Below, one piece after another: positions 2-13,363 of a stretch of DNA of 64,000 nt; position 1 is the stretch's first letter; each line of letters opens with the position of its first letter. The stretch comes from a virus: IMG/VR virus record IMGVR_UViG_3300043436_003324; one strand, written 5' to 3'. Made by a program: the position numbers and the translations under genes. A model generated the notes under the pieces. It did not search any database and was not told the origin of the DNA. It saw only the letters and a program-made list of their open reading frames with translations.

Positions 2-394
2 TATTTTAGTTATAATGAAGTACAAGATGGGTTTGGTTATGGAGCATCTGCACTACAAGGTAATAGAATCGGGAATAATTTTTACAATAATATCATTGGC
101 GAATATTTCTACAATAATATTATTCCTGATAACTTTTACAATAACACAATTGGCGATTCATTCCAATGGAATATTGTTAATACTGAAGTTAATAATGTTT
201 GTTTAAGTACAGGTATGTTATATGATATCACAACAGTTAATGTATTCAAAAATAAAAATGGAGATAATAGATTATCGTATTACGATGAAGTGGATGTTCT
301 AACAATAGAAACATTAACTGAAGCTCCTTGTTTAGGTGGGTTAAACGTATTAGACATACCAGAAAATGATTTAAATTTCGGATTAATATTATAA
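2..394 (+). CDS. 3' end (partial) of an Asn-rich beta-helix tail fibre/spike protein, paralogous to 3008..6229
   Basis: Frame 2 is open from base 2 to TAA at 392-394 and is not in the ORF track. It reads YFSYNEVQDGFGYG..NRIGNNFYNNIIGEYFYNNIIPDNFYNNTIGDSF..VFKNKNGDNRLSYYDEVDVLTIE. It has the same IGxxFxxN repeats and the same C-terminal F-K-x5-RLSYY-x3-DVL motif as 3008..6229. Confidence 0.85.
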   Translation, partial: YFSYNEVQDGFGYGASALQGNRIGNNFYNNIIGEYFYNNIIPDNFYNNTIGDSFQWNIVNTEVNNVCLSTGMLYDITTVNVFKNKNGDNRLSYYDEVDVLTIETLTEAPCLGGLNVLDIPENDLNFGLIL

Positions 395-421: not shown

Positions 422-1498
422 ATGATACAAGGAATTAGAATAACAAGCACAAATTTATCAGGACTAACGGCAAACGTTACTTTTTATCCCACAACTGGTG
501 GGTCAGAAAATTTAGGATCTGAAGTAATACCATTTAACAATATTTCGGATTATCCTTACGGAACATACGAATTAGACGTTCCGTTATATGATAGAATGTA
601 TGAAATAAATGTTCCAGCACCATTAACAGGTCAGAGCGCATATACTCAAACAGTAAGATCGGTTACCGTTGACGGAGGATACCAACCATTCTCAGGAGCG
701 GTATTATCTGAAGTATGGGGAACATATACAACACAATATATTACAGATGAAGGAATACCATCAACTGATATTGTTTTAGCTGAAGGTATTTGTTCTGATG
801 ACGTTGATGCGTCAAAAGTACCTGGAAATATTGGTGGATGGCCAAATAGTATTAATTCATTTTTAGGACCATTTATGTCAGGTGGATTGGCGGGTTATCC
901 GTTTGTTGGTAGTGTTGGGTTTGGAGCCTTTTCAAGTCACGTAGCAACAACTCTTGATGGAACCTTGTTTGTAACGAGTATGCCACACATTGGTGTTACT
1001 GAAGATGGTCGTTCAGGTAGAATGTTACGTAGAGGTAAAGCCGATAGTAGTACAGATAATACTTGTGGTGCCGTTGCGGGAGCAATTGACCAAGTTGTAA
1101 ATGTATTATCTAATGCTCCAAATCAAAATAATGCACCTTTTAATAATGGTAATTATTCTTTTTGGAAATTAACTGATATTTTATGGCCACACAAATATTC
1201 ATTATCAAATTTTACAGGTACTACTGAAGAAGTATATAATAAACAAATGATTTTAGCAACTGAAATAATTAGAGATTCTGCTTATGATTATATTATTGCA
1301 AATTTACCTGCAGCAACCGAAGCAAACACTGAGAATGACGTATATTTTTTAAGTGGTATTTTTATTAATAGTGATGTTAGTTCGGGTACAACACAATTTG
1401 AATCATATGTTGTTGTTGATAAAGTTATGAAATATGTGTTTGATGATCAGTGGTATGATATAACGGTTGATTATATGGCTGGATTACCAATTGACTAA
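422..1498 (+). CDS. LCIB/LCIC-family (theta / beta-fold) carbonic anhydrase with an N-terminal ~80-aa extra module
   Basis: Motifs in family order: GICSDD (C124, D126), GPFMSGGLAGYPFVGSVGFGAFSSH, MPHIGVTEDGRSGRMLRRGK (H189), NTCGAV (C215), then YFLSGIFIN. These parallel the LCIB motifs CRDE / GLGG..GxTG..A..SH / PHIAI..G..G...R.GR / CACGA as recalled from the family. Confidence 0.85.
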   Translation: MIQGIRITSTNLSGLTANVTFYPTTGGSENLGSEVIPFNNISDYPYGTYELDVPLYDRMYEINVPAPLTGQSAYTQTVRSVTVDGGYQPFSGAVLSEVWGTYTTQYITDEGIPSTDIVLAEGICSDDVDASKVPGNIGGWPNSINSFLGPFMSGGLAGYPFVGSVGFGAFSSHVATTLDGTLFVTSMPHIGVTEDGRSGRMLRRGKADSSTDNTCGAVAGAIDQVVNVLSNAPNQNNAPFNNGNYSFWKLTDILWPHKYSLSNFTGTTEEVYNKQMILATEIIRDSAYDYIIANLPAATEANTENDVYFLSGIFINSDVSSGTTQFESYVVVDKVMKYVFDDQWYDITVDYMAGLPID

Positions 1499-1518: not shown

Positions 1519-2733
1519 ATGGCAACAAAATATATAGTAAATAACTTATCAGGTCAAACAATAGATGGTGATATAACTATCAACGGAAATTTAAGTGTTA
1601 CCGGGGTTACAACAGGAAGTTTATCAACTTACAAAGCACTATTAACTCAGTTAGGGGTTCAGACAGGTACCGAATTAATTGATTTTAATGATGGTTTAAT
1701 TATAGGTGAAACCTATACAATAACTGATTATGTTAGTGATGATGATTTTAGTAATATTGCTAATGTAATTAGTGGTGGTGTTCTTACATATAGTTATAGT
1801 GGAACGTCAGTAACCGGATTTACTAGCACATATGATTCTGGTGGTGCCACAAGTGGTGAAGGTTCTGGTGTTGAGTTTGAAATTTATATAAACAATGATG
1901 TTTATGAATCAATCAGTATCGTTAACCTTGGTTATGGATATGCAAGTGGTGATACAATAACGATATTGGGTACAAATGTTGGGGGTATCAGTCCAGATAA
2001 CGACATAACAATAACAGTTGATAGTGTGACTACCAATAACCCTAACGTAACAGGTTGTGCATTCATTGCAACAGGAGAAATACCAACAAATTGGAGTAAC
2101 GGTTCTACTTTAGTATCTAGCGGTAATTTAGTGGTGACAGTATTAGAAAACAATTTGGGATTTGACATTGAGTGGGTTGAGGAAATTTTTGGGTCAGGAA
2201 TTTATTTCGGATATAATTCAACCACAGGACCATTGTATAATACTTTTAATAGAAACACAACATTTGTTTTAAATGGTTCAAATCCAAATCCGTATTTTGG
2301 TCCTAACCTATTAGAAACTTTTGTAGGTCCTATAAGTTTATCCGAGAAAGATGAAACAATTGTTGTTGCGGTTTTTGATACGGATATACTTGAACCAGTT
2401 GGTGATAGTTTGTATTATTTTCCTATAGAGATTCAACAACAAAATACCGACACAACACCAATTGTAATAAGTGGAACTGTAGAATCATCATTTCCTATTA
2501 ATTTTACTAGTATTGCTTTGTTTTGTAATGGAAATTACATTCAAGCACTTTACGGGGATGGTACAGTAAATGATATGTCAGAACTTATAACTTACTTAAA
2601 CTCTTTACCAAATATGAGTTATTTAGGTACATACTCTAATGATGGAGATGGAGTTCTTTTAGAAATGTCAACCAATTTAGTAAATCAATTCTGTTCTAGT
2701 GGAACATTAACTTTTGAGGTCTTCAACGACTAA
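1519..2733 (+). CDS. Putative tail fibre / virion structural protein
   Basis: 404 aa, rich in Gly/Thr/Ser/Asn. It starts with a short beta-repeat (IDGDITINGNLSVTG), has YKALLTQ...VTVLENNLG motifs and a GSGxEFxI..I.N.GYGY..GDTITI module typical of phage structural proteins. It lies in an operon with fibre genes. Confidence 0.6.
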   Translation: MATKYIVNNLSGQTIDGDITINGNLSVTGVTTGSLSTYKALLTQLGVQTGTELIDFNDGLIIGETYTITDYVSDDDFSNIANVISGGVLTYSYSGTSVTGFTSTYDSGGATSGEGSGVEFEIYINNDVYESISIVNLGYGYASGDTITILGTNVGGISPDNDITITVDSVTTNNPNVTGCAFIATGEIPTNWSNGSTLVSSGNLVVTVLENNLGFDIEWVEEIFGSGIYFGYNSTTGPLYNTFNRNTTFVLNGSNPNPYFGPNLLETFVGPISLSEKDETIVVAVFDTDILEPVGDSLYYFPIEIQQQNTDTTPIVISGTVESSFPINFTSIALFCNGNYIQALYGDGTVNDMSELITYLNSLPNMSYLGTYSNDGDGVLLEMSTNLVNQFCSSGTLTFEVFND

Positions 2734-3007: not shown

Positions 3008-6000
3008 ATGGCAAATAAAAAAATATCAGACTTACCTTACGTTGGTAATACGGGGTACACCTCAATAGACATAATACCTATTGTAAATTATGATGTACCC
3101 ACAGGAACAACTAAACACACACCTATTTTAGATTTTGCAAGTTACATTTTAAGTGCAACACCTGTAAGTTACTCAAGTTTATTTACTTTAATGTTCACTA
3201 GTAACCTAACTCAAGGTTCTTATTATCTAATAGAAGATTTTAAAACATGTTATGATCAACCTGATTTTGATTATAATGGAAACCCAATTACTTCTGGAAA
3301 TTATAAACAAGGTCCTGTTGAGCCAATTGTAGTATTGGCCACAAGTATTAATACAATTAGTCCTGTTGCTTATCAACCAATACACCCTAACGACTTTATA
3401 CGTTATGATATAATGTATAATACAACTGAAGTTACTAATGGTGTTGCCTTTGGTAGGATTACTGAAAGAATTGATGAGTTTAATAATAGGACTGATTATG
3501 ATCATAGAAATATTTTATTTAAAAGATATAAATTATTTACATATAGAGACGAGTTAAGATTAAATGGTACAATTGAGTTATTAAGTAATGGTACAGTTAA
3601 TGGTGTTGATACTTCTTTCACTTCTCTGTCGGTAGGTGATGTTATTTATATACCTAATACTTACCCTAGTTATTATGAAATAACAGGAATTACCGACAAT
3701 GTAACTATGAACGTGTCAGGTGACACTATAACGGCGATTGGTGCGGGTCAAAGTTTTTATCTTACAATAGAAGAAACTAACGGTAATGGTTACTTTAGTC
3801 ATAAAAGAACAAACGTTAGATCAAACGATTACGAACAGTACACCACTTTTGGGGATGCAATATTAAATGATTATGCAAAAAATAACTATATAGGTAATTA
3901 CACAAATAACTATACAAATGTTAGTAGTGGAACATTCTTACTACCAAACAATGTATTTTTAGAAGGACAATACGAAAGTAATAAATTTGGTGATTACTGT
4001 TACAATAATACGTTTGGAACTGACAATCAAAATAACGTTTGGGGTGATTTGTGTTACAATAACGTTTCAACAAATGATATTGATGATAATATAATTGGTA
4101 ACAATTTTCATGATAACCTAATAAACGCAAATTTAATCTCTAACCATATTGGTAATGATTTTAATAATAACCAATTATTGGGTGAGAATAGTAATGTCAA
4201 TGATTTTCAAGACAACATTATTGGAAATGGGTTTAGTAACAATCTTATTTATTCTGAGTTTTATAAAAATGAAATATTAGATGACTTTCAAGATAATTTA
4301 ATTGGTGACTTTGGTAACTTAGATAATTTTGAATTTTATAGAAATTATATTCGTAACGGATTTGGAAAAAATACAGTAAGACAAAATTTCCAAAATAATC
4401 AAATCGGTACAAACTACCAAGAGAATACTATTAATGGGTCATCTCAAGGAAACACAATACTTAATGGGTTTAATAAAAATAAAATTGGGTCTGACTTTAA
4501 TGTCAATCTTATTGGTAATGGTTTTAATTATAATACAGTTAATGATAGTTTTTATAATAATGAAACTAAATATTATTTTAATGGGAATATAATCCCTAAT
4601 CAATTTTTCAACAATAAAATAGGGCAGTACTTTGAAAATAATCAACCAATTAATACTCTTTTTGGTTGGGGTGATTTATCTAATATCACGGGTAGAACTT
4701 ATGATATTTTTAATGATTCTTTAGGTGGCTCTATTGATTATAGAATCTTAGGTAAAGAATTGGTAATGAAAGTTACATCCACATCTCAGTATTTTAAAAT
4801 TAAATTTAATCAATGGACATTAGATGGTAACGGAGGAGGTTTCCAATACGAAAGAACTGAAATGGATTCACTTGGTAATAACATAGGACCTACAGTTACA
4901 TTTACAAAAAGAAATGGTGTTAATGATATTGATATTATTATACCAGGAGTCTTGGAAATCGCTAGAGATAATAGTGGGGCAATTTATAATATTGCAACAG
5001 AAGGATCGTGGAATAGTTCTGTAAGTCCACAAGACACAGAATGGAATTCAGTATATACCGAACCTAATAGCGGTGTCAGATTTTCAAGTAATAAAATAGG
5101 TGATTTTTTCATAGAAAATAAATTTGATAATGATTTTGGTTATGGTGCTTCACAAAATCAGGGTAACGTAATAAATGATTCTTTTCAGAAAAATTTGATT
5201 GGTCAATTTATGTACAATAATGTTATAGGTAATTACTTTACCAACAATATTATCGGTGATAACTTTGAGGCTAACTCAATTAACAATTATTTTAATAGTA
5301 ACTCTATTGGAAATGCATTTGAAAATAACACCATTAAAAATTATTTTATAGGAAACTCTATATTAAATGGTTTTGAAAGTAATGAAATTGGTAACTACTT
5401 TGGGAATGATGGTTCGGGTCCTGGTTCACCAGTTCAAAATATTATTTTTAGTGATTTTAAATACAACAAGATTGGTAATTTCTTTGGTAATGACACTAAT
5501 TTCCCTTCAGTTGGTGGTGGTACAAACGGTGACGGTGGAAACATCATAAACACTGGCTTCCAATTTAACGTGATTGGTGATAATGTGTTATTTAACGCAT
5601 TAAACCTAAACTTCACTAATAATAAAATTGGTAACGACTTTTGGTTTAACGTATTTGGTCAAAACACATCAGATAATACAATAGGTAATTTATTTGTCGG
5701 TAACTCAGGTATCGGTGGATTCCCAACTGAAATTGGTGGTAACTTTATATCTAATAACTTGGGTAACTACTCATCATTTAACGAAATTGATACAAACTTC
5801 CAATATAACAAAATAGGTAATTTCTTTGGTAACGCTGGTGGTGGAACACAAAATATTATTTCTACTGGATTTAACAATAACAATATCGGTAATTACTTTG
5901 GTGATGACGGTTCTCAAATTAGTGGGGGTAATAATATTGGGATTAACTTTACATTGAATGAAATTGTTTCTCTTTTCTATTCCAACACTATTGGTGATGA

Positions 6001-6229
6001 CTTTAACAACAACACATTGAGTAATGGCTTCTTAGAAAACACAGTGGGAAATGACTTCAAAAGAAATCAAATAGACTACTCACCAAATAGTATAGATTTC
6101 ACAACGGGACCAGCAACTCACGTATACGGTGATTATAACTGTACAATATTCAAAAGACCTGATAGTACATTAAGATTATCTTACTACAATAACTCAGATG
6201 TATTAAACATAACAAACATTGACGCATAA
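3008..6229 (+). CDS. Asn-rich beta-helix tail fibre / tailspike-like protein
   Basis: 1073 aa. N-terminal MANKKISDLP attachment-type start, then dozens of ~9-10-aa (I/V)GxxFxxNx repeats consistent with a parallel beta-helix, interrupted by a non-repeat domain at about aa 545-690. Confidence 0.7.
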   Translation: MANKKISDLPYVGNTGYTSIDIIPIVNYDVPTGTTKHTPILDFASYILSATPVSYSSLFTLMFTSNLTQGSYYLIEDFKTCYDQPDFDYNGNPITSGNYKQGPVEPIVVLATSINTISPVAYQPIHPNDFIRYDIMYNTTEVTNGVAFGRITERIDEFNNRTDYDHRNILFKRYKLFTYRDELRLNGTIELLSNGTVNGVDTSFTSLSVGDVIYIPNTYPSYYEITGITDNVTMNVSGDTITAIGAGQSFYLTIEETNGNGYFSHKRTNVRSNDYEQYTTFGDAILNDYAKNNYIGNYTNNYTNVSSGTFLLPNNVFLEGQYESNKFGDYCYNNTFGTDNQNNVWGDLCYNNVSTNDIDDNIIGNNFHDNLINANLISNHIGNDFNNNQLLGENSNVNDFQDNIIGNGFSNNLIYSEFYKNEILDDFQDNLIGDFGNLDNFEFYRNYIRNGFGKNTVRQNFQNNQIGTNYQENTINGSSQGNTILNGFNKNKIGSDFNVNLIGNGFNYNTVNDSFYNNETKYYFNGNIIPNQFFNNKIGQYFENNQPINTLFGWGDLSNITGRTYDIFNDSLGGSIDYRILGKELVMKVTSTSQYFKIKFNQWTLDGNGGGFQYERTEMDSLGNNIGPTVTFTKRNGVNDIDIIIPGVLEIARDNSGAIYNIATEGSWNSSVSPQDTEWNSVYTEPNSGVRFSSNKIGDFFIENKFDNDFGYGASQNQGNVINDSFQKNLIGQFMYNNVIGNYFTNNIIGDNFEANSINNYFNSNSIGNAFENNTIKNYFIGNSILNGFESNEIGNYFGNDGSGPGSPVQNIIFSDFKYNKIGNFFGNDTNFPSVGGGTNGDGGNIINTGFQFNVIGDNVLFNALNLNFTNNKIGNDFWFNVFGQNTSDNTIGNLFVGNSGIGGFPTEIGGNFISNNLGNYSSFNEIDTNFQYNKIGNFFGNAGGGTQNIISTGFNNNNIGNYFGDDGSQISGGNNIGINFTLNEIVSLFYSNTIGDDFNNNTLSNGFLENTVGNDFKRNQIDYSPNSIDFTTGPATHVYGDYNCTIFKRPDSTLRLSYYNNSDVLNITNIDA

Positions 6230-6258
6230 TAATAAAAAAATTAAAAAATAAAAATAAA

Positions 6259-6645
6259 ATGGCAAGTGCAAATTTTAATAAACAAATACTTTCATCAAAT
6301 TATAAAAAACAAAATACTGAATATTTTTTAGATGATGTAATAACAAAAGATTTTAACGGTCCTTATTCGTATCGTTTTACTAATGAAGTCCCTAATGGTG
6401 TAACATTATTTAAAGATAAATTAACAATAGCGGAAAGATTAACTTTTGTTTTGTCAATAACAGTAAATGCTGGAGATAAAAATAACCCTACATCTGCTAT
6501 AGCAACAACAAACGTAACTATTGACACCACAAAAGATTATGCTAAAGAGGTGGAAATTCTATTGGACAATCCAGGAATAACTCAAAAAGTAACTGACACT
6601 AAAAATAAATGGACTTCAATAATTAATGGTCAAGAACCTGCTTAA
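6259..6645 (+). CDS. Hypothetical protein (128 aa), last gene of the fibre operon
   Basis: ORF with an A-rich leader and typical codon usage; no motif recognised. Confidence 0.6.
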   Translation: MASANFNKQILSSNYKKQNTEYFLDDVITKDFNGPYSYRFTNEVPNGVTLFKDKLTIAERLTFVLSITVNAGDKNNPTSAIATTNVTIDTTKDYAKEVEILLDNPGITQKVTDTKNKWTSIINGQEPA

Positions 6646-6714
6646 ATTATTTTGAAACATTAAAAAATGATTCGGAAATAGTTGGTCCAGTAACTCCTCG
6701 TGGTTAAAATTTAA

Positions 6715-6746
6715 TTGACTTAGACGGATAAAAAATATATATTTAT
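6715..6746 (+). promoter_or_regulatory. Sigma70-like promoter of the DNA polymerase gene, overlapping a TATTTAT motif
   Basis: TTGACT (6715-6720), 17 nt, TATATT (6738-6743). The hexamers and spacing are identical to those upstream of the SSB gene. TATTTAT lies at 6740-6746. Confidence 0.65.
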
Positions 6747-6807
6747 TAATGTAAGGTAAATGTCATCTTTGTATGATAGATAATAAACCAAACTTTAAAA
6801 AAAATAT

Positions 6808-9741
6808 ATGATATCACAAGAAGAAATTAAGTCATTTCTAGAAGGAAATGATTCGGAAGAGCACATCGTTGCGATTGAGTTTGACTACGTGTCGGACCAT
6901 ATTTATAAAATCAAAGAAATACCGGGAAAAGGAAAATCTATTGTAAGAGATAGTTTGATCGCATTTGCTTGGGTAGGAGACCTAAAAGGGTTAAACTTTT
7001 ATCAAGGATCTAAAGCACTACAAAAAGAGGCGATGTCTAAGTACGGAATTGTAATAGATAAATTAAGAACTGATGGAAATGAAAGATTAGAAAATGGTCT
7101 AACATTTATGGTTAAGTCAATGAAAGGTTATCGATCTCTAACACAATTTTTTCGTGATGGAGGTATTGATCCTTGGGGTGAAAATACAAAAAATAAATTT
7201 TTAATGTTACCCCCTGTCGAACAGTACCTCATCTCAAAAGAAAAAAGATTGTTCAAAGGATTTGAGGAATATAATGATATCACTAGATTTGGATTTGACC
7301 TTGAGACAACCGCATTAGAACCAAAAGACGGTCGTATCTTTATGATTGGAATGAAAACCAATAAAGGATTCCTAAAAGTTATTGAATGTAAAGATGAAGA
7401 TGATGAAAGAAGTGGTCTTGTTGAGTTCTTCAGAACAATAGACGAACTTAAACCATCAATTATTTCAGGATACAATTCAGCAAATTTTGACTGGTTTTGG
7501 ATATTCGAAAGATGTAAGGCTTTAAATCTTGATATTAAAAAAATAGCAAAGTCCCTTAACCCAAAAAGAACAATATCCCAAAAGGAATCAATGTTAAAAT
7601 TAGCAAATGAGGTTGAGAAATTTAATCAGGTTCAGTTGTGGGGATATAATGTGATTGATATTATCCACTCTGTTCGTAGAGCTCAAGCAATCAATTCAAA
7701 TATTAAAGAGGCGGGATTGAAGTACATTACCAAATTTATAGATGGTGAGGCTAAAGATCGTATATATATTGACCACACAAAGATTGGTCCTATGTACGCT
7801 GAAAAAGACGAGTATTGGTTAAACACTGAAAATGGTAAGTATAAGAAAGTTGGTATTGATTCTAAAATTGATGAGGTTTGTTTTAGACGAGGAGACATTT
7901 ATATAAAAACAACTGGGGACGATATAGTTGAGCGTTATCTTGACGATGACCTTGAGGAAACCTTGATAGTGGATGACGAGTTCAATCAAGGAACTTTCCT
8001 ACTTGCGTCTTTAGTTCCAACAACATATGAAAGGGTCTCAACAATGGGGACCGCAACATTATGGAAAATGATAATGCTTGCTTGGTCATATAAGTTTGGT
8101 TTGGCAATTCCTAAAAAAGAAGAACAAAGAAGATTTGTTGGTGGGTTATCACGATTACTTAAAGTGGGTTATTCAAAAGACGTGTTAAAACTTGACTACT
8201 CATCACTATATCCGTCTATTCAGTTGGTACACGATGTATTTCCTGAATGTGATATTACGGGGGCGATGAAAGGTTTATTAACATTTTTCCGTAATTCTCG
8301 TATTATGTATAAGAATTTGGCTTCGGAATATAAGGGTATTGATAAAAAGAAATCATTGTCATTCGATAGAAAACAATTACCAATTAAGATTTTTATTAAT
8401 GCATTCTTTGGTTCCTTATCGGCACCTCAAGTATTCCCGTGGGGGGATATAAATATGGGCGAACAGATCACTTGTACAGGAAGACAATATCTTCGTCAGA
8501 TGTTAAAGTTCTTTGTTAAAAGAGGATATACCCCACTTGTATGCGATACGGACGGTATGAACTTTTCATTACCTGAAGGTGGTGTGGATCATAAAGTTTA
8601 TATCGGTAAAGGATTAAATTGGTTGGTTAAAGTAGGTGAAGAATATAGAGGTTATAATGCTGATGTTGCAGAATTTAATGATACATTCATGAAAGGTGAA
8701 ATGGGTCTTGATTGTGATGGTACGTGGGACTCTTGTATAAACTTAGCACGTAAGAACTACGCAACTATGGAACATAACGGTAAAATTAAATTAACGGGTA
8801 ATTCAATCAAATCTAAAAAAATGCCAAAGTATATTGAGGTTTTCTTAGATAAGGGGATAAGACAACTTTTAGAGGGAGATGGTCAATCTTTTGTGGAATA
8901 CTATTATGAATACGTACAAAAGATATTCGACCAAAAAATTCCATTAATGCAAATTGCGTCTAAATCAAGAATAAAACAATCAATTGATGATTACATTAAA
9001 CGAAGTAAACAAACAACTAAAGCCGGATCACTTATGTCAAGACAGGCTCATATGGAACTTGCAATACGTGACAATCTTAATGTAAATTTGGGTGATATAA
9101 TCTACTACGTAAATAACGGAACTAAGGCCTCACACGGAGATGTTCAAAAAGTTAATAAACCAAAGGCCGGTTGGAATGATGATCAGATAAATTTATTTTA
9201 CTCTGATTCTACAAAATCTAAAGTATCTTATAAAGAAAAGGAAACTTTACTACTTAATAATGGTTGGGAAAAATCTTGGTCTGAAGATAATTGGGTACGT
9301 AGTAATTCTAAAAATAAAGAAGCAAATACCGGAATACCAACAGATATGGCATATAAACTTGCTACAACAGATTCTGTTGTCCAGTTAAACTCATACATGT
9401 TAAACCCATCAGACATTGAAAATAATCCTGATATGTTAGGGGAATACAATATCCAAAGGGCGATTGCAACATTTAATAAAAGGGTCGAACCTTTATTAAT
9501 AGTTTTTAAAGAAGAAGTGAGAGATGGATTATTAGTTAAGAATCCTGAAGAAAGAGGGTTCTTTACAAAAACACAATGTGAGTTAATTAATGGTGTTCCG
9601 TTTGAAGAAAAGGACCAAGATGATATTGAAGAACATTTAATTAAACTGGAAGATGGTGAAATAGAGTTTTGGGAAAAGGTTGGTATTGACCCTAACTATA
9701 TGTATGAATTGGCAGAACCTGGATGGGAAGAGTTGGTTTAA
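6808..9741 (+). CDS. Family-B DNA polymerase with 3'-5' exonuclease
   Basis: ExoI FDLETT, ExoII GYNSANFD, ExoIII YLDDD, motif A LDYSSLYPSI, motif B QLPIKIFINAFFG, motif C CDTDG. No intein. Confidence 0.97.
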   Translation: MISQEEIKSFLEGNDSEEHIVAIEFDYVSDHIYKIKEIPGKGKSIVRDSLIAFAWVGDLKGLNFYQGSKALQKEAMSKYGIVIDKLRTDGNERLENGLTFMVKSMKGYRSLTQFFRDGGIDPWGENTKNKFLMLPPVEQYLISKEKRLFKGFEEYNDITRFGFDLETTALEPKDGRIFMIGMKTNKGFLKVIECKDEDDERSGLVEFFRTIDELKPSIISGYNSANFDWFWIFERCKALNLDIKKIAKSLNPKRTISQKESMLKLANEVEKFNQVQLWGYNVIDIIHSVRRAQAINSNIKEAGLKYITKFIDGEAKDRIYIDHTKIGPMYAEKDEYWLNTENGKYKKVGIDSKIDEVCFRRGDIYIKTTGDDIVERYLDDDLEETLIVDDEFNQGTFLLASLVPTTYERVSTMGTATLWKMIMLAWSYKFGLAIPKKEEQRRFVGGLSRLLKVGYSKDVLKLDYSSLYPSIQLVHDVFPECDITGAMKGLLTFFRNSRIMYKNLASEYKGIDKKKSLSFDRKQLPIKIFINAFFGSLSAPQVFPWGDINMGEQITCTGRQYLRQMLKFFVKRGYTPLVCDTDGMNFSLPEGGVDHKVYIGKGLNWLVKVGEEYRGYNADVAEFNDTFMKGEMGLDCDGTWDSCINLARKNYATMEHNGKIKLTGNSIKSKKMPKYIEVFLDKGIRQLLEGDGQSFVEYYYEYVQKIFDQKIPLMQIASKSRIKQSIDDYIKRSKQTTKAGSLMSRQAHMELAIRDNLNVNLGDIIYYVNNGTKASHGDVQKVNKPKAGWNDDQINLFYSDSTKSKVSYKEKETLLLNNGWEKSWSEDNWVRSNSKNKEANTGIPTDMAYKLATTDSVVQLNSYMLNPSDIENNPDMLGEYNIQRAIATFNKRVEPLLIVFKEEVRDGLLVKNPEERGFFTKTQCELINGVPFEEKDQDDIEEHLIKLEDGEIEFWEKVGIDPNYMYELAEPGWEELV

Positions 9742-10082
9742 GATATTTTTAAACCATCTGAAGATAAGATATACCAATTACCTTGAACAAATTGGAATTG
9801 GACACAAGATCCTTTTTCTAAAAGTAATTCATCCCACTCTTCATCTATCATACCCATATCAGGTTTTACTAAAACTGAAGTTAATGATTTAACAACAATT
9901 CTTTTTGTAACCGTAGAATTTAAAGTTACCTCAGAATTTGAAACTCCTCTTACTATTAAGAGGGTTTCATCGTTTGTGGTGTACTTATCTTTAGAAATGA
10001 TTAACGACTTGTCTTGTTCTTTTGGTGGATCAATAGACGTTTGATATTTAATAACATTTTTTCTTTGTGGTGTATTTGTCAT
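9738..10082 (-). CDS. Hypothetical beta-rich protein (114 aa), possibly structural
   Basis: Coupled to the neck gene by an ATGA overlap. Its stop shares the palindrome TTAA (9738-9741) with the polymerase stop. It ends in GNWYILSSDG. Confidence 0.65.
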   Translation of the reverse strand: MTNTPQRKNVIKYQTSIDPPKEQDKSLIISKDKYTTNDETLLIVRGVSNSEVTLNSTVTKRIVVKSLTSVLVKPDMGMIDEEWDELLLEKGSCVQFQFVQGNWYILSSDGLKIS

Positions 10083-11206
10083 ATTACATAAATTTGTCTT
10101 GGCATGGCTCTAAATTTAAGAGTCTTGTTTAAGTTTTCCGCAATTAACGCTTCTCTTTCCATTACCTTTTCCGGTTTTAATCTTGTGAGTCTACCTTCAG
10201 TACCAATCAATTCGTCAAGTAATTTAGTTTTTTCATCTTTACCTTCCGTAGCCAATGACTGATAATCCATAGTAAGATCACCATCAGGAGCCTTTAAATT
10301 ACCACTAAACTTACCTCTTACTTTTGATAATAATTCTTTCGCCGACGCCACAAACCACCTTCTAACCCAAATTTGTGACGGGTTATTTAGTTCGGTCCAA
10401 CTTACTCTTTCAAAGGGAACATCAGAAGGCATTTTAATTATATCTGGATTCTCTTTTAAACATCTGTCTCTATCGTTTTCGTTTGTTGGATAATACCAAT
10501 ACCAAACCTTACCTTTTGCTAATGTTGAGTTACCAAAATCAAATTTACTACCGGGAGTATTCATTAAGTGAATTGCCTTTTTACCTCCAGGTAATGCGGT
10601 AATCCTATACGTCAAATCCCCAACAATAATTCTTCTTTGTATATTAATTTCTTGCATTCTTAATAACATATCAAAAGCCGGCATCATAAAGTAACTACCT
10701 GCCATATTACCCATTTGAGCAAGACCTCCACCACCTCCAAGTCCACCACCGACACCTAAAGAACCAAAAGACCATGGATCAAACATTGTATTGTTTAAGG
10801 TTGCAGGACTGAACCATAAAAGTTCATTAATTTCTCTACCTGCAGGTATTTCATATATTTGTTGATTAGGAACTAATTGGATGTAATCTTTTTTCATTAC
10901 AGAATCTCCTCCTGCCTGTAGTCCTACAATTTTAGAATATGCGTAAGTGTATCTTGTTTCATAATCTAAACTTTTTGTCATAAATGCGTTAGACAATGAT
11001 TGGGTCTCAACATTAAGACCCCAAAGACTTGTCCACTGACTCTCAATTAACCAATCTTGGATGTACTGAGAGTAGTCCTCAATAGAGAACTCTAATAAAG
11101 TGTCTAACTGTTCATCCTCAAGTTCAACAGATCTTAAAGGTGCTCCCAAGACATGTCGTACTCTCGTATATAGTCTTTCTCTTTCTTCATTACTTATTAT
11201 CGACAT
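10079..11206 (-). CDS. Neck / head-tail adaptor, T4 gp13-like
   Basis: N-terminal RHVLGAPLRSVELEDEQLDTLLE parallels T4 gp13 RRLGAPIINVELTPDQIYD. C-terminal ..GKF.G.L..P.G..T.D..L..EG..E motif. Confidence 0.8.
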   Translation of the reverse strand: MSIISNEERERLYTRVRHVLGAPLRSVELEDEQLDTLLEFSIEDYSQYIQDWLIESQWTSLWGLNVETQSLSNAFMTKSLDYETRYTYAYSKIVGLQAGGDSVMKKDYIQLVPNQQIYEIPAGREINELLWFSPATLNNTMFDPWSFGSLGVGGGLGGGGGLAQMGNMAGSYFMMPAFDMLLRMQEINIQRRIIVGDLTYRITALPGGKKAIHLMNTPGSKFDFGNSTLAKGKVWYWYYPTNENDRDRCLKENPDIIKMPSDVPFERVSWTELNNPSQIWVRRWFVASAKELLSKVRGKFSGNLKAPDGDLTMDYQSLATEGKDEKTKLLDELIGTEGRLTRLKPEKVMEREALIAENLNKTLKFRAMPRQIYVI

Positions 11207-11236: not shown

Positions 11237-13363
11237 TTAATTAATAAGTTGATATAACTCTTCATTGTAATACTTGATCATTTCAGTTATATTTTCAGAA
11301 TCGCCAAGTTCACGTAATTTATCTTTATAATATTGTATCCTTTCTCTATAGTACTCAATTTCTGTTTGGGTGTCTCTTGTAAGTTTAAGTTTTGATTCTA
11401 CCTTATCAGGCTCGACTATAACCTCAAAATCCATATTTGTTTTTAAAGGATTCTCGTAATATATTACAAAAAATTTAGGGAATGTTGTTGGGTTCGCAAC
11501 TGTTTGAATTCTCGCAAAATCATTTCTAAACATAACAAATTTTTCTTTTGGTCTATCAACATATAAAATAACATCAACGTTACTTTCAGTATATTTAGAA
11601 TGGTAATGCCAAGAAGGTACCTTATAATAGTATCCCCTCTCTGACCCAATCTTTTCAATTTTTTTATAATCAATTGGCTTTACCTGAATGTAATATGAGA
11701 CATTATCAATAACAACATCAAAGTCTTGACCTAATTTTCTATCCCTAACATCCCCAGCACACCTTTCTATAATATTCCAAGTAAGACCTTCCTCTTCAGG
11801 GTTTAACTTAAATGAAGTAACTAAAACTGACTTTGCATAATTCTCATTTGCTCTACCGTCAACTATTGTTTTTACGTTTAGATTCACCAATCTTTCAGTA
11901 AATCTTCCTTCATCCCCAACCAGTTCTCCCATGTTATTTGTAATCCATGTTCTAAAATTTTCTACGGAATTAGTTTCCTCTGACCAAATTTTTTGAATCT
12001 CTTTATGTACGGAACTATTCGTATCAAATCTATTTATAATAGACCAATTACCAATACCTCCATAATTTTGCTCAGTATATTTACCACCAATGATCCCTTC
12101 ATCAGTTTTACATTGTTCTGTCTCAATTTTTCCTAAACAACCGTTTGTGTGTTTTAAACCATCACATTTAGGGTAAGCATCGTTTATTAAACCTCTAAAA
12201 GATTTTGAGGTTAATGGGAAGACCTCTTTAGCTTCAGATAAAATAGAATCCTCAGTTAATGACTCATTTATGTTTTTTGTCCTACTTAAGTACAATTCAT
12301 TAACAAATTCCCAATTAACACTATTCCAAAAATTTTTAATGTATTCATCCCTTTTATTTTGATATTTTAAATAATACGAATGCTCCCAAAGATCAAGACC
12401 AAGTAGTGGATAACCACCGTCTTTTATAACGTTCATTAATGGATTATCTTGATTTGGTGTAGACATAATTTTTAATCTATTTGTCTTTGTTAAGAATAAC
12501 CAAACCCAACCAGAACCAAACCTTTTCTTTGCAACATCATTAAACTCATCTTTCATTTTTTTAATGTTACCGTATTGTTTGTTGATCTTTTCAAATACCT
12601 CTCCTTTAGGTATCTGTTTCTTTGGGGACAACATTTTCCAAAATAATGCGTGGTTAAATGCACCTCCGGCATTATTTCTTATGGTGTCATCATATTTACC
12701 AATTGATTTAATAATATCTTCTAACTCTAAATCACCATATTTTTTTTTAGATAAAGCGTCATTAAGTTTTTTTACATATCCTTTATAATGTTTATTATAG
12801 TGGATATCCATAGTTTTTGGATCAACAAATTGTTTTATTGCCGAATATGAATAAGGTAATTTATCAATACCAATCTTTTTCATTTCCATAATAAAGTTAT
12901 TTTTTATATTAACTTTATCGTAGATAATAATTTCCTCTTTTAGTAAATCAATTCTTTTATAGATTGTGCCGTACCCTTCATATATTATATTATCTAAATC
13001 AGGATTTTCTTTTTCAAAAGATTTAACTAAAGATCCTGACAATGAATTTGCTTCATCTTCATTTTGACCTCCGATATCTGGTCCCCTATCTCTGCCAATA
13101 ACATTTCTTTGATATGAATGAACCCATTCGTGAGCCAAAGTTCTTAAGATATCCCTATTCATTCTATTATTTATTAATACCTTAATACCCTTTTCTTTAT
13201 GTTGACTACCTGTTGTCATTCTGCCAATTTTTTCACCCATAAGATGGATAGTAATATCCTCTTTTAATTTGTGATTTTTTTGTAAAAATTTACAAAACTT
13301 CTTTAATAGATCGTTTTTCTTATCATCTATATTTGCCCCTATGTTTTTAAAAGTAACTTTCAT
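11237..13363 (-). CDS. Three-domain fusion: HExxH metalloprotease-like domain + Fe/Mn superoxide dismutase (Mn-type signature) + PD-(D/E)xK-like domain
   Basis: RTLAHEWVH at aa 78-82. The SOD domain at about aa 168-357 has TMDIHYNKHYKGY, NNAGGAFNHALFW, FGSGWVWL, NQDNP and LDLWEHSYY (all four metal ligands present). The C-terminal domain has DRKLGQD-x11-IQVK. Confidence 0.85.
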   Translation of the reverse strand: MKVTFKNIGANIDDKKNDLLKKFCKFLQKNHKLKEDITIHLMGEKIGRMTTGSQHKEKGIKVLINNRMNRDILRTLAHEWVHSYQRNVIGRDRGPDIGGQNEDEANSLSGSLVKSFEKENPDLDNIIYEGYGTIYKRIDLLKEEIIIYDKVNIKNNFIMEMKKIGIDKLPYSYSAIKQFVDPKTMDIHYNKHYKGYVKKLNDALSKKKYGDLELEDIIKSIGKYDDTIRNNAGGAFNHALFWKMLSPKKQIPKGEVFEKINKQYGNIKKMKDEFNDVAKKRFGSGWVWLFLTKTNRLKIMSTPNQDNPLMNVIKDGGYPLLGLDLWEHSYYLKYQNKRDEYIKNFWNSVNWEFVNELYLSRTKNINESLTEDSILSEAKEVFPLTSKSFRGLINDAYPKCDGLKHTNGCLGKIETEQCKTDEGIIGGKYTEQNYGGIGNWSIINRFDTNSSVHKEIQKIWSEETNSVENFRTWITNNMGELVGDEGRFTERLVNLNVKTIVDGRANENYAKSVLVTSFKLNPEEEGLTWNIIERCAGDVRDRKLGQDFDVVIDNVSYYIQVKPIDYKKIEKIGSERGYYYKVPSWHYHSKYTESNVDVILYVDRPKEKFVMFRNDFARIQTVANPTTFPKFFVIYYENPLKTNMDFEVIVEPDKVESKLKLTRDTQTEIEYYRERIQYYKDKLRELGDSENITEMIKYYNEELYQLIN

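Follow-up and report, generated by a model that had tools for sequence, protein, structure and literature searches.

A carbonic anhydrase gene in a large tailed phage

The virus record IMGVR_UViG_3300043436_003324 of IMG/VR, from which we analysed a stretch of 64,000 nucleotides (nt; hereafter, the window), carries near its start a gene for a carbonic anhydrase (CA) of the LCIB/theta type, joined within the same protein to a small N-terminal module (Table 1). The window is a 31% G+C portion of a large tailed phage. Its gene content includes the tail sheath (17935-21264), the tube, the baseplate hub and wedge, and a head-tail adaptor-like gene, along with a family B DNA polymerase (PolB), DnaB, a UvsX-like recombinase, and a ribonucleotide reductase. 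The nearest record, a 91-kb IMG/VR fragment, has a rated completeness of 31%, and close homologues of the CA gene were found on contigs of 250-330 kb. Together with the set of tail and replication genes, these findings indicate that the source is a jumbo-size myovirus, known from metagenomes only. Comparison of the CA protein (tblastn) and of 20 kb of the window (megablast) with the 50,697 deposited phage genomes of INPHARED returned no match, and the best relatives of the PolB, found in Salinibacter and Nostoc phages, are 23-28% identical.

Table 1 Features of the window at and around the carbonic anhydrase gene (aa, amino acids)
Feature	Position	Strand	Remarks
Whole gene, N-terminal Ig-like module and LCIB/theta-type CA domain	422..1498	+	ATG start, open reading frame, 358 aa and stop
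N-terminal module, aa 1-68, predicted Ig/FN3-like beta-sandwich from Met1	422..625	+	six strands
Junction between module and CA domain, aa 69-70	626..631	+	
LCIB_C_CA / theta-type beta-carbonic anhydrase domain, aa 71-358	632..1495	+	
C124-S125-D126: first Zn ligand, Ser of active PtLCIB4, catalytic Asp	791..799	+	aligns to LCSDEV of PtLCIB4
H173, active-site His (PtLCIB4 H88)	938..940	+	Ala in this column of the H88A mutant chain
H189 (PHIGV), second Zn ligand (PtLCIB4 H102)	986..988	+	alignments
R203-R204 (RRG motif; PtLCIB4 RRG, R116/R117)	1028..1033	+	alignments
C215 (TCGA), third Zn ligand (PtLCIB4 C126)	1064..1066	+	alignments
Upstream repeat protein, C-terminal end, NNxIGNxF repeats	2..394	+	ends 27 nt before the CA gene
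404-aa gene, no assigned function	1519..2733	+	starts 20 nt 3' of the CA gene
1073-aa repeat protein	3008..6229	+	N-terminus matches that of the 802-aa gene that comes before the CA gene in relatives
Family B DNA polymerase	6808..9741	+	directly downstream of the CA gene in relatives of ~50% identity (L042, L052, L054)
Head-tail adaptor-like gene	10079..11206	-	phrog_211, E 2e-10

A preliminary description of the locus, made from the DNA letters, had placed this gene among the LCIB/theta carbonic anhydrases. Its reading frame, its motif positions (GICSDD at aa 122, GGLAGYPF at 154, PHIGV at 188, RMLRRG at 200, and TCGA at 214), and its numbering of C124, D126, H189, and C215 proved exact, and the family assignment was borne out by several searches. 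The hidden Markov model PF18599 (LCIB_C_CA) matched the protein with 102.5 bits (cut-off 25; E 2.6e-29), aligning aa 104-334 to positions 12-218 of its 223. As a single sequence, the protein matched LCIB-family chains of the PDB (phmmer) at E-values from 2e-12 to 1e-8, among them 6kfs (2e-12) and the diatom enzyme PtLCIB4 (3e-9). A profile of the phage CA homologues, whose alignment also contained sequences with the N-terminal module only, matched PtLCIB4 over the whole domain (E 2.4e-46). Solved LCIB-family structures were also the nearest neighbours of the predicted structure in a Foldseek search (E 4e-15, TM-score by target ~0.8), and the predicted model superposed on PtLCIB4 at 2.2 Å. Given these matches of profile, sequence, and predicted fold, and the conserved catalytic residues described below, we are confident that aa 71-358 form a true member of the LCIB/theta group with a beta-CA-like alpha/beta fold. 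The protein is closer to PtLCIB4, which is active, than to LCIB of Chlamydomonas. No signal peptide or transmembrane segment was found in it, which makes export by the Sec pathway unlikely.

Active site of the carbonic anhydrase domain

The register of the alignment to PtLCIB4 was fixed by two mutant chains of that enzyme in the PDB, S47R and H88A. C124-S125-D126 correspond to C46-S47-D48, a stretch that reads LCRDEV in the S47R chain, while the equivalences of H102, R116/R117, and C126 were obtained by counting along the PtLCIB4 chain. In this alignment, C124, H189, and C215 fall on the CSD, SHVGV, and CCG positions of PtLCIB4, and the residue that follows the first cysteine is a serine, as in the active enzyme, and not the arginine of the S47R mutant. 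With the register set in this manner, the three metal ligands, the catalytic aspartate, the active-site histidine, the arginine, and the serine of the diatom enzyme are therefore all retained.

These residues are also strongly conserved among relatives. In an alignment of the window protein and its 120 best matches, C124, D126, H189, C215, R200, R203, and R204 were invariant and the column of H173 was fully conserved. Among 22 representatives at 29-47% identity, the invariant positions included C124, D126, D127, H173, H189, R203, C215, G216, and A217. Thus, the set of zinc ligands C124/H189/C215 is invariant in 143 sequences (121 close and 22 diverged); the CA domain has no cysteines other than C124 and C215. 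The triad, with Asp126 and a downstream arginine, is the set that the preliminary description had singled out. Superposition of the predicted model on PtLCIB4 suggests that the ligands would also lie together in three dimensions.

Since the invariance covers catalytic and not just metal-binding residues, and since the nearer relative of the protein is the active PtLCIB4 and not the LCIB of Chlamydomonas, we consider, with good though not full confidence, that the CA domain is an active zinc enzyme with a putative role in CO2/bicarbonate interconversion. A different possibility is that the LCIB fold serves as a scaffold or ligand-binding head, with a zinc site that is structural only, much like the inactive CA-like domain in the attachment protein of a poxvirus. 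LCIB and LCIC of Chlamydomonas have a complete zinc site and the recombinant proteins are nonetheless inactive in vitro (PMC5876011, a review), so conserved ligands are no proof of catalysis; in addition, the phage domain occurs in modular proteins beside adhesin-like genes. Such a repurposed binding domain, which had been suggested from the outset, is weakened by the invariant catalytic set, and we regard it as improbable. Even less probable, to the point of being very doubtful, is a hydrolase with the beta-CA fold that acts on another small molecule (of the carbonyl sulfide or carbon disulfide type), at whichever location. An early suggestion that the protein acts as an esterase gained no support.

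An N-terminal module shared with other proteins

In a model with a mean pLDDT of 91.5, the first 68 aa of the protein make up a separate all-beta unit, with six strands between aa 3 and 64, and are predicted to form an Ig/FN3-like sandwich. A PDB sequence search with a profile of the module returned matches only to low-complexity Pro/Thr linkers, and no usable match emerged from a Protein Atlas feature search with aa 1-70. Much stronger evidence than that of the model came from sequence comparison, in which aa 3-80 alone matched the N-termini of dozens of representatives of 50%-identity clusters, proteins of 83 to 702 aa. The question raised in the preliminary description, whether the N-terminal module caps other phage proteins, was thus answered by dozens of carriers, with a boundary at about 68 aa. 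The alignment of the module has 13 invariant positions, Met1 among them, indicating that it always stands at the start of the protein.

In most carriers, the module is followed by a Pro/Thr linker, long in many of them, and then by an unrelated C-terminal part. The cargoes that this group of large, low-GC myoviruses joins to the module include the CA, a domain of ~690 aa, LamG lectin-like domains (one carrier has a Laminin_G_3 domain), and DUF285 repeats, at the start of one protein of which the module was found; small stand-alone copies occur as well. The fusion of module and CA is retained down to 45% identity, and a homologue search with the module alone for longer relatives was dominated by such fusions. 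The family with the ~690-aa domain has no Pfam domain and comprises L005:8001-10076 and 62 relatives (P0175, P0280-P0339) on contigs of up to 332 kb.

Comparison of related loci revealed how the cargo changes. L005/L006 and L002/L003 share a left flank of six small minus-strand genes and a 1332-aa protein. After this flank, L005/L006 carry a 691-aa module protein; in L002/L003, an 802-aa repeat protein comes next, followed by the module-CA gene. Four module-bearing reading frames lie within 10 kb of L003, namely the CA gene, an 87-aa stand-alone copy, a 150-aa frame, and the DUF285 protein, and extra copies beside the CA gene are also present in L018, L037, L057, L059/L060, and L062. A conserved, anchor-like N-terminal part is thus combined with exchangeable C-terminal domains at one locus. 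Because the module is common to varied proteins, because the cargo in the slot is swapped, and because several copies may share a locus, we believe that the module provides a shared handle for docking or adhesion, with the CA as one of its cargoes, a proposal that we hold to be likely, if slightly less secure than that of catalytic activity. Glycosyltransferase genes (phrog_7162, phrog_24687) were observed near the cluster of module and repeat-protein genes in L002/L003 (1-3369, minus strand) and L042 (188-1435).

Distribution and origin of the viral clade

Relatives of the CA gene are abundant. A first homologue search retrieved 268 proteins with E-values of up to 0.001, of which the best 120 were 78-94% identical, and an exhaustive search of 50%-identity representatives gave 795 matches, of which 19 had E-values below 1e-30. 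In IMG/VR, a relative is present on at least 150 viral contigs; hundreds of metagenomic protein clusters contain one as well, and the ESM Atlas holds a cluster of 358-aa LCIB_C_CA proteins that is labelled 100% viral. Pairwise dN/dS (the ratio of nonsynonymous to synonymous substitution rates) among 19 distinct alleles was 0.20 for the whole gene, 0.19 for the CA domain, and 0.23 for the N-terminal module, which places the gene under purifying selection.

A tree of 199 LCIB domains placed all 40 phage-labelled sequences in a single clade of 42 tips, with a Shimodaira-Hasegawa-like support of 0.997 and a stem of 0.62 substitutions per site. The two tips without a phage label are an uncharacterised cluster of 549 aa and a 1.5-kb contig of a metagenome-assembled genome (MAG). 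Cellular relatives, chiefly from MAGs of Bacteroidota and Planctomycetota, are at most ~31% identical and lie outside the viral clade, the sister tips being a Chitinophagaceae MAG sequence and one uncharacterised cluster. No recent donor is therefore visible, and recent capture from an alga or a sequenced bacterium was rejected. The tree indicates that the viral LCIB branch is old and phage-resident.

That phage enzymes of this type have not been described, as the preliminary description surmised, agrees with our searches of the literature, INPHARED, PHROGs, and BFVD. Literature searches on LCIB and phage, or on theta carbonic anhydrase and virus, found nothing relevant; PHROGs has no family for the CA protein; and a fold search of BFVD gave no significant viral match and no LCIB-like structure, the best CA being a beta-CA of a giant virus (E 0.06).

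Genomic context in the window and in other lineages

The genes that flank the CA gene lie on the same strand, across short gaps (Table 1). They had been taken for fibre- or spike-type genes of a tail-fibre operon. Their repeat-rich composition, their paralogous ends, and the lack of terminator-like sites between the CA gene and either neighbour were upheld, while the fibre/spike label rests on composition only. The operon itself was not established, since the neighbours match no known fibre, spike, or baseplate family; furthermore, the recognised tail genes of the window lie 16-23 kb from the CA gene, and in relatives the CA gene precedes PolB. Nor did the PHROGs and BFVD results reveal a known fibre, spike, or baseplate homology of the CA protein itself.

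The upstream reading frame shares 73% identity with the end of the 802-aa gene found before the CA gene in L002/L003, and its own end is paralogous to that of the 1073-aa gene, whose N-terminus is in turn 58% identical to that of the 802-aa gene over 139 aa. The large repeat proteins near the CA gene (2-394, 3008-6229, and L003:7531-9939) thus swap N- and C-terminal ends between paralogues and between phages, with 58% and 73% identity in the common parts and unrelated sequence elsewhere. The position of the 404-aa gene downstream is not conserved, as relatives have other genes there. A C-terminal module common to this gene and P0126 was considered and rejected, as BLASTP found no match.

A sense-strand TATTTAT lies 16-70 nt 5' of many gene starts, of structural and replication genes alike (for example at 6740, 11222 and 13369, the latter two on the minus strand, 16072, 17889, 22280, 23817, 25860, 42235, 45783, 48176, and 57323). 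Neither TATTTAT nor TATAAATA was enriched in comparison with shuffles. The region upstream of the CA gene lacks a sense-strand TATTTAT and contains only TATAAATA, at 390-397. Beside the adaptor-like gene, a 708-aa reading frame (11237-13363, minus strand) embeds a complete Fe/Mn superoxide dismutase at aa 166-356 (Sod_Fe_N 1.7e-20, Sod_Fe_C 1.4e-38). This is a second small-molecule metalloenzyme of the source phage that is fused into a possibly structural protein.

In 35 of 50 loci of the module type, PolB is no more than 6 kb from the CA gene, and 30 of these also have the adaptor gene. In L042, L052, and L054 (~50% identity), the CA gene is located directly upstream of PolB on the same strand, and an adaptor-like gene follows on the other strand. 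The module-less loci displayed different surroundings, with head or tail hallmark genes within 6 kb in 18 of 31. In L071/L073, the order is adaptor-170-303-(307)-CA-82-sheath-tube-hub, and the sheath, tube, hub, and adaptor share 21-38% identity with their counterparts in the window. In L079-type phages, the order is portal-396-major head protein-337-CA, followed by a virion structural protein.

The extensions of the CA domain vary across the clade and include a second N-terminal motif, fibre-like N-termini, and a 110-aa C-terminal tail. All fusions join just before a conserved QSAYT..TV motif. The second N-terminal motif, LKxY...G..VPGSL......P..G.W (~45 aa), was observed in L077, L079, L080, and L085, with CA genes near 5830-6800. 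It also occurs in P0133, P0138, P0140, and P0143. This conserved motif stands at the start of the CA proteins of the lineage whose CA gene comes after the portal and major head protein, and it may be another docking handle. The longest product is a 776-aa protein (L064:5692-8022, L065, L076), in which the CA occupies aa 131-385 between N-terminal and C-terminal parts of 130 and 390 aa.

The main rival to a structural role is a soluble intracellular auxiliary metabolic enzyme. It might, for instance, supply bicarbonate for the carboxylations of carbamoyl-phosphate, purine, and fatty-acid synthesis while the phage replicates in a burst, or dissipate the inorganic-carbon pool of the host, and the module would act only in oligomerisation or in targeting to an intracellular partner. 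The intact active site under purifying selection, the missing signal peptide, and the same-strand adjacency to PolB in L042, L052, and L054 are all in keeping with such an enzyme, as is the non-structural neighbourhood of the tandem CA genes of L010/L082. Viral alpha, beta, and gamma CAs have likewise been proposed as auxiliary genes in viromes (bioRxiv 10.64898/2026.01.21.700432). Yet the module also occurs on LamG, DUF285 repeat, and Pro/Thr-linker proteins, all of extracellular or structural appearance; the CA gene lies within head or neck-tail modules in two other lineages; and the many differing N- and C-terminal extensions, in one protein of up to 776 aa, would be unusual for a metabolic enzyme. 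On origin and placement the picture is mixed: no close cellular donor is visible, and the CA gene has structural surroundings in two lineages, non-structural ones in another, and ambiguous ones in the window. Taken together, we judge the auxiliary enzyme unlikely, though well ahead of the non-catalytic domain and the alternative hydrolase. If the enzyme were intracellular after all, it would represent a new and abundant type of carbon-related auxiliary gene.

A putative virion-attached enzyme

Based on these findings, we favour the reading that the protein is a catalytically active zinc enzyme, borne as the cargo of a module for docking or adhesion and probably associated with the virion, to which we assign a probability of roughly 0.55. 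In the mechanism we propose, aa 71-358 would bind zinc through C124, H189, and C215, with D126, H173, and R203 completing the active site, and would interconvert CO2 and bicarbonate. The Ig-like module would dock the CA, as well as other cargoes, on the surface or an appendage of the virion. We can only guess at the benefit: a phage particle carrying the enzyme might speed up the equilibration of CO2, bicarbonate, and protons in the boundary layer around the host or at the very moment of infection.

Location on the surface or an appendage of the virion is, on its own, a matter of about even odds, and still the likeliest of the locations considered. It is suggested by the company that the module keeps (lectin-like, repeat, and Pro/Thr-linker proteins), by the CA genes within structural modules of two other lineages, and by the lack of an export signal. 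In addition, Ig-like domains of phages are reportedly nearly confined to virion proteins (Fraser et al. 2006).

Several observations weigh against this reading, in addition to the inactivity of the Chlamydomonas proteins described above. An enzyme that only sets an equilibrium has no established benefit on a virion. The same-strand adjacency to PolB would also suit expression as a middle gene. Pfam, PHROG, and PDB searches with the neighbours of the CA gene gave no significant match, with weak sub-threshold matches only for the small reading frames 2714-2992 and 6259-6645, and no second copy of the module was found in the 64-kb window or in the 91-kb nearest record. Finally, in phages of the L010/L082 type, two tandem CA genes lie among HNH, ATPase, RNA ligase, lysozyme, and phosphoesterase genes. 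These tandem LCIB-type genes (~401 and 285 aa, 4 nt apart) are found in L010:8001-10067, L078, L082, and L083, with a dCMP deaminase also nearby. By analogy with LCIB/LCIC, their products might form a hetero-oligomer.

Extended to the clade as a whole, the favoured reading would mean that the ancient phage-specific branch consists of catalytically intact CAs that several lineages of aquatic tailed phages bear on heads, necks, or tail appendages, attached through interchangeable N-terminal handles. We advance this wider proposal tentatively, at somewhat less than even odds. The members of the viral clade combine an invariant catalytic set with phage-type extensions, to which they are nearly always fused, and often lie within head, neck, or tail modules.

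A virion-attached carbonic anhydrase would be of a kind not previously described in phages. Should the reading hold, it would provide the first example of a carbonic anhydrase on a virus particle and, with it, a new class of virion enzyme, one that acts on a small molecule instead of a polymer. The list of virion enzymes would then extend from depolymerases and lysins to a diffusion-limited small-molecule enzyme, and the question would arise of what local CO2, bicarbonate, and pH chemistry does for adsorption and early infection in aquatic hosts. The 68-aa handle offers a clear case of plug-in organisation in phage proteins that can be put to the test. As the protein is small, soluble-looking, and should be readily expressed, its activity, metal content, and partner binding are directly amenable to experiment.

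Comparison with known systems

Theta/LCIB carbonic anhydrases are known from the carbon-concentrating systems of algae and cyanobacteria. The diatom enzymes of this type (PtLCIB4, PDB 5b5y; also 6kfs and 9vzj) are only ~20% identical to the phage CA. In comparison with PtLCIB4, the viral proteins form a monophyletic clade on a long stem and have an extra NIGQxP loop after the CSDD motif. They bear phage-type N- or C-terminal modules in place of plastid targeting peptides and have no link to a CO2-concentrating mechanism. LCIB and LCIC of Chlamydomonas (PDB 5k5w, 5b5x) are more distant from the phage CA than PtLCIB4 is, and act around the pyrenoid (PMC5876011). The bacterial LCIB_C_CA proteins, mostly from Bacteroidota and Planctomycetota MAGs, have the same domain and are the nearest cellular relatives of the phage CA.

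Among viruses, alpha, beta, and gamma CAs with conserved active-site residues have been reported from viromes as auxiliary genes (bioRxiv 10.64898/2026.01.21.700432). Unlike the phage LCIB-type CA, these represent other CA classes, occur as unfused proteins, and group with CAs from bacterial MAGs; neither the LCIB type, nor the N-terminal module, nor a structural-module context is described in that work.

The organisation of the phage protein resembles that of Ig-like virion proteins and of the modular tail-fibre or depolymerase sets of phages, which likewise combine a conserved N-terminus with swapped C-terminal domains, have several carriers per genome, and undergo replacement in a slot between related phages. 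In the known modular sets, a trimeric fibre stem usually serves as the anchor, and what it carries is a receptor-binding or glycan-cutting domain. The handle described here, for which no homology to a known anchor was found, is in contrast a predicted 68-aa Ig-like sandwich, and the cargo a small-molecule metalloenzyme. Another point of comparison is the D8 attachment protein of poxviruses, a surface protein of an animal virus that is built on an alpha-CA-like fold and has lost the catalytic residues. The phage protein belongs to a different CA class and has kept the full catalytic set.
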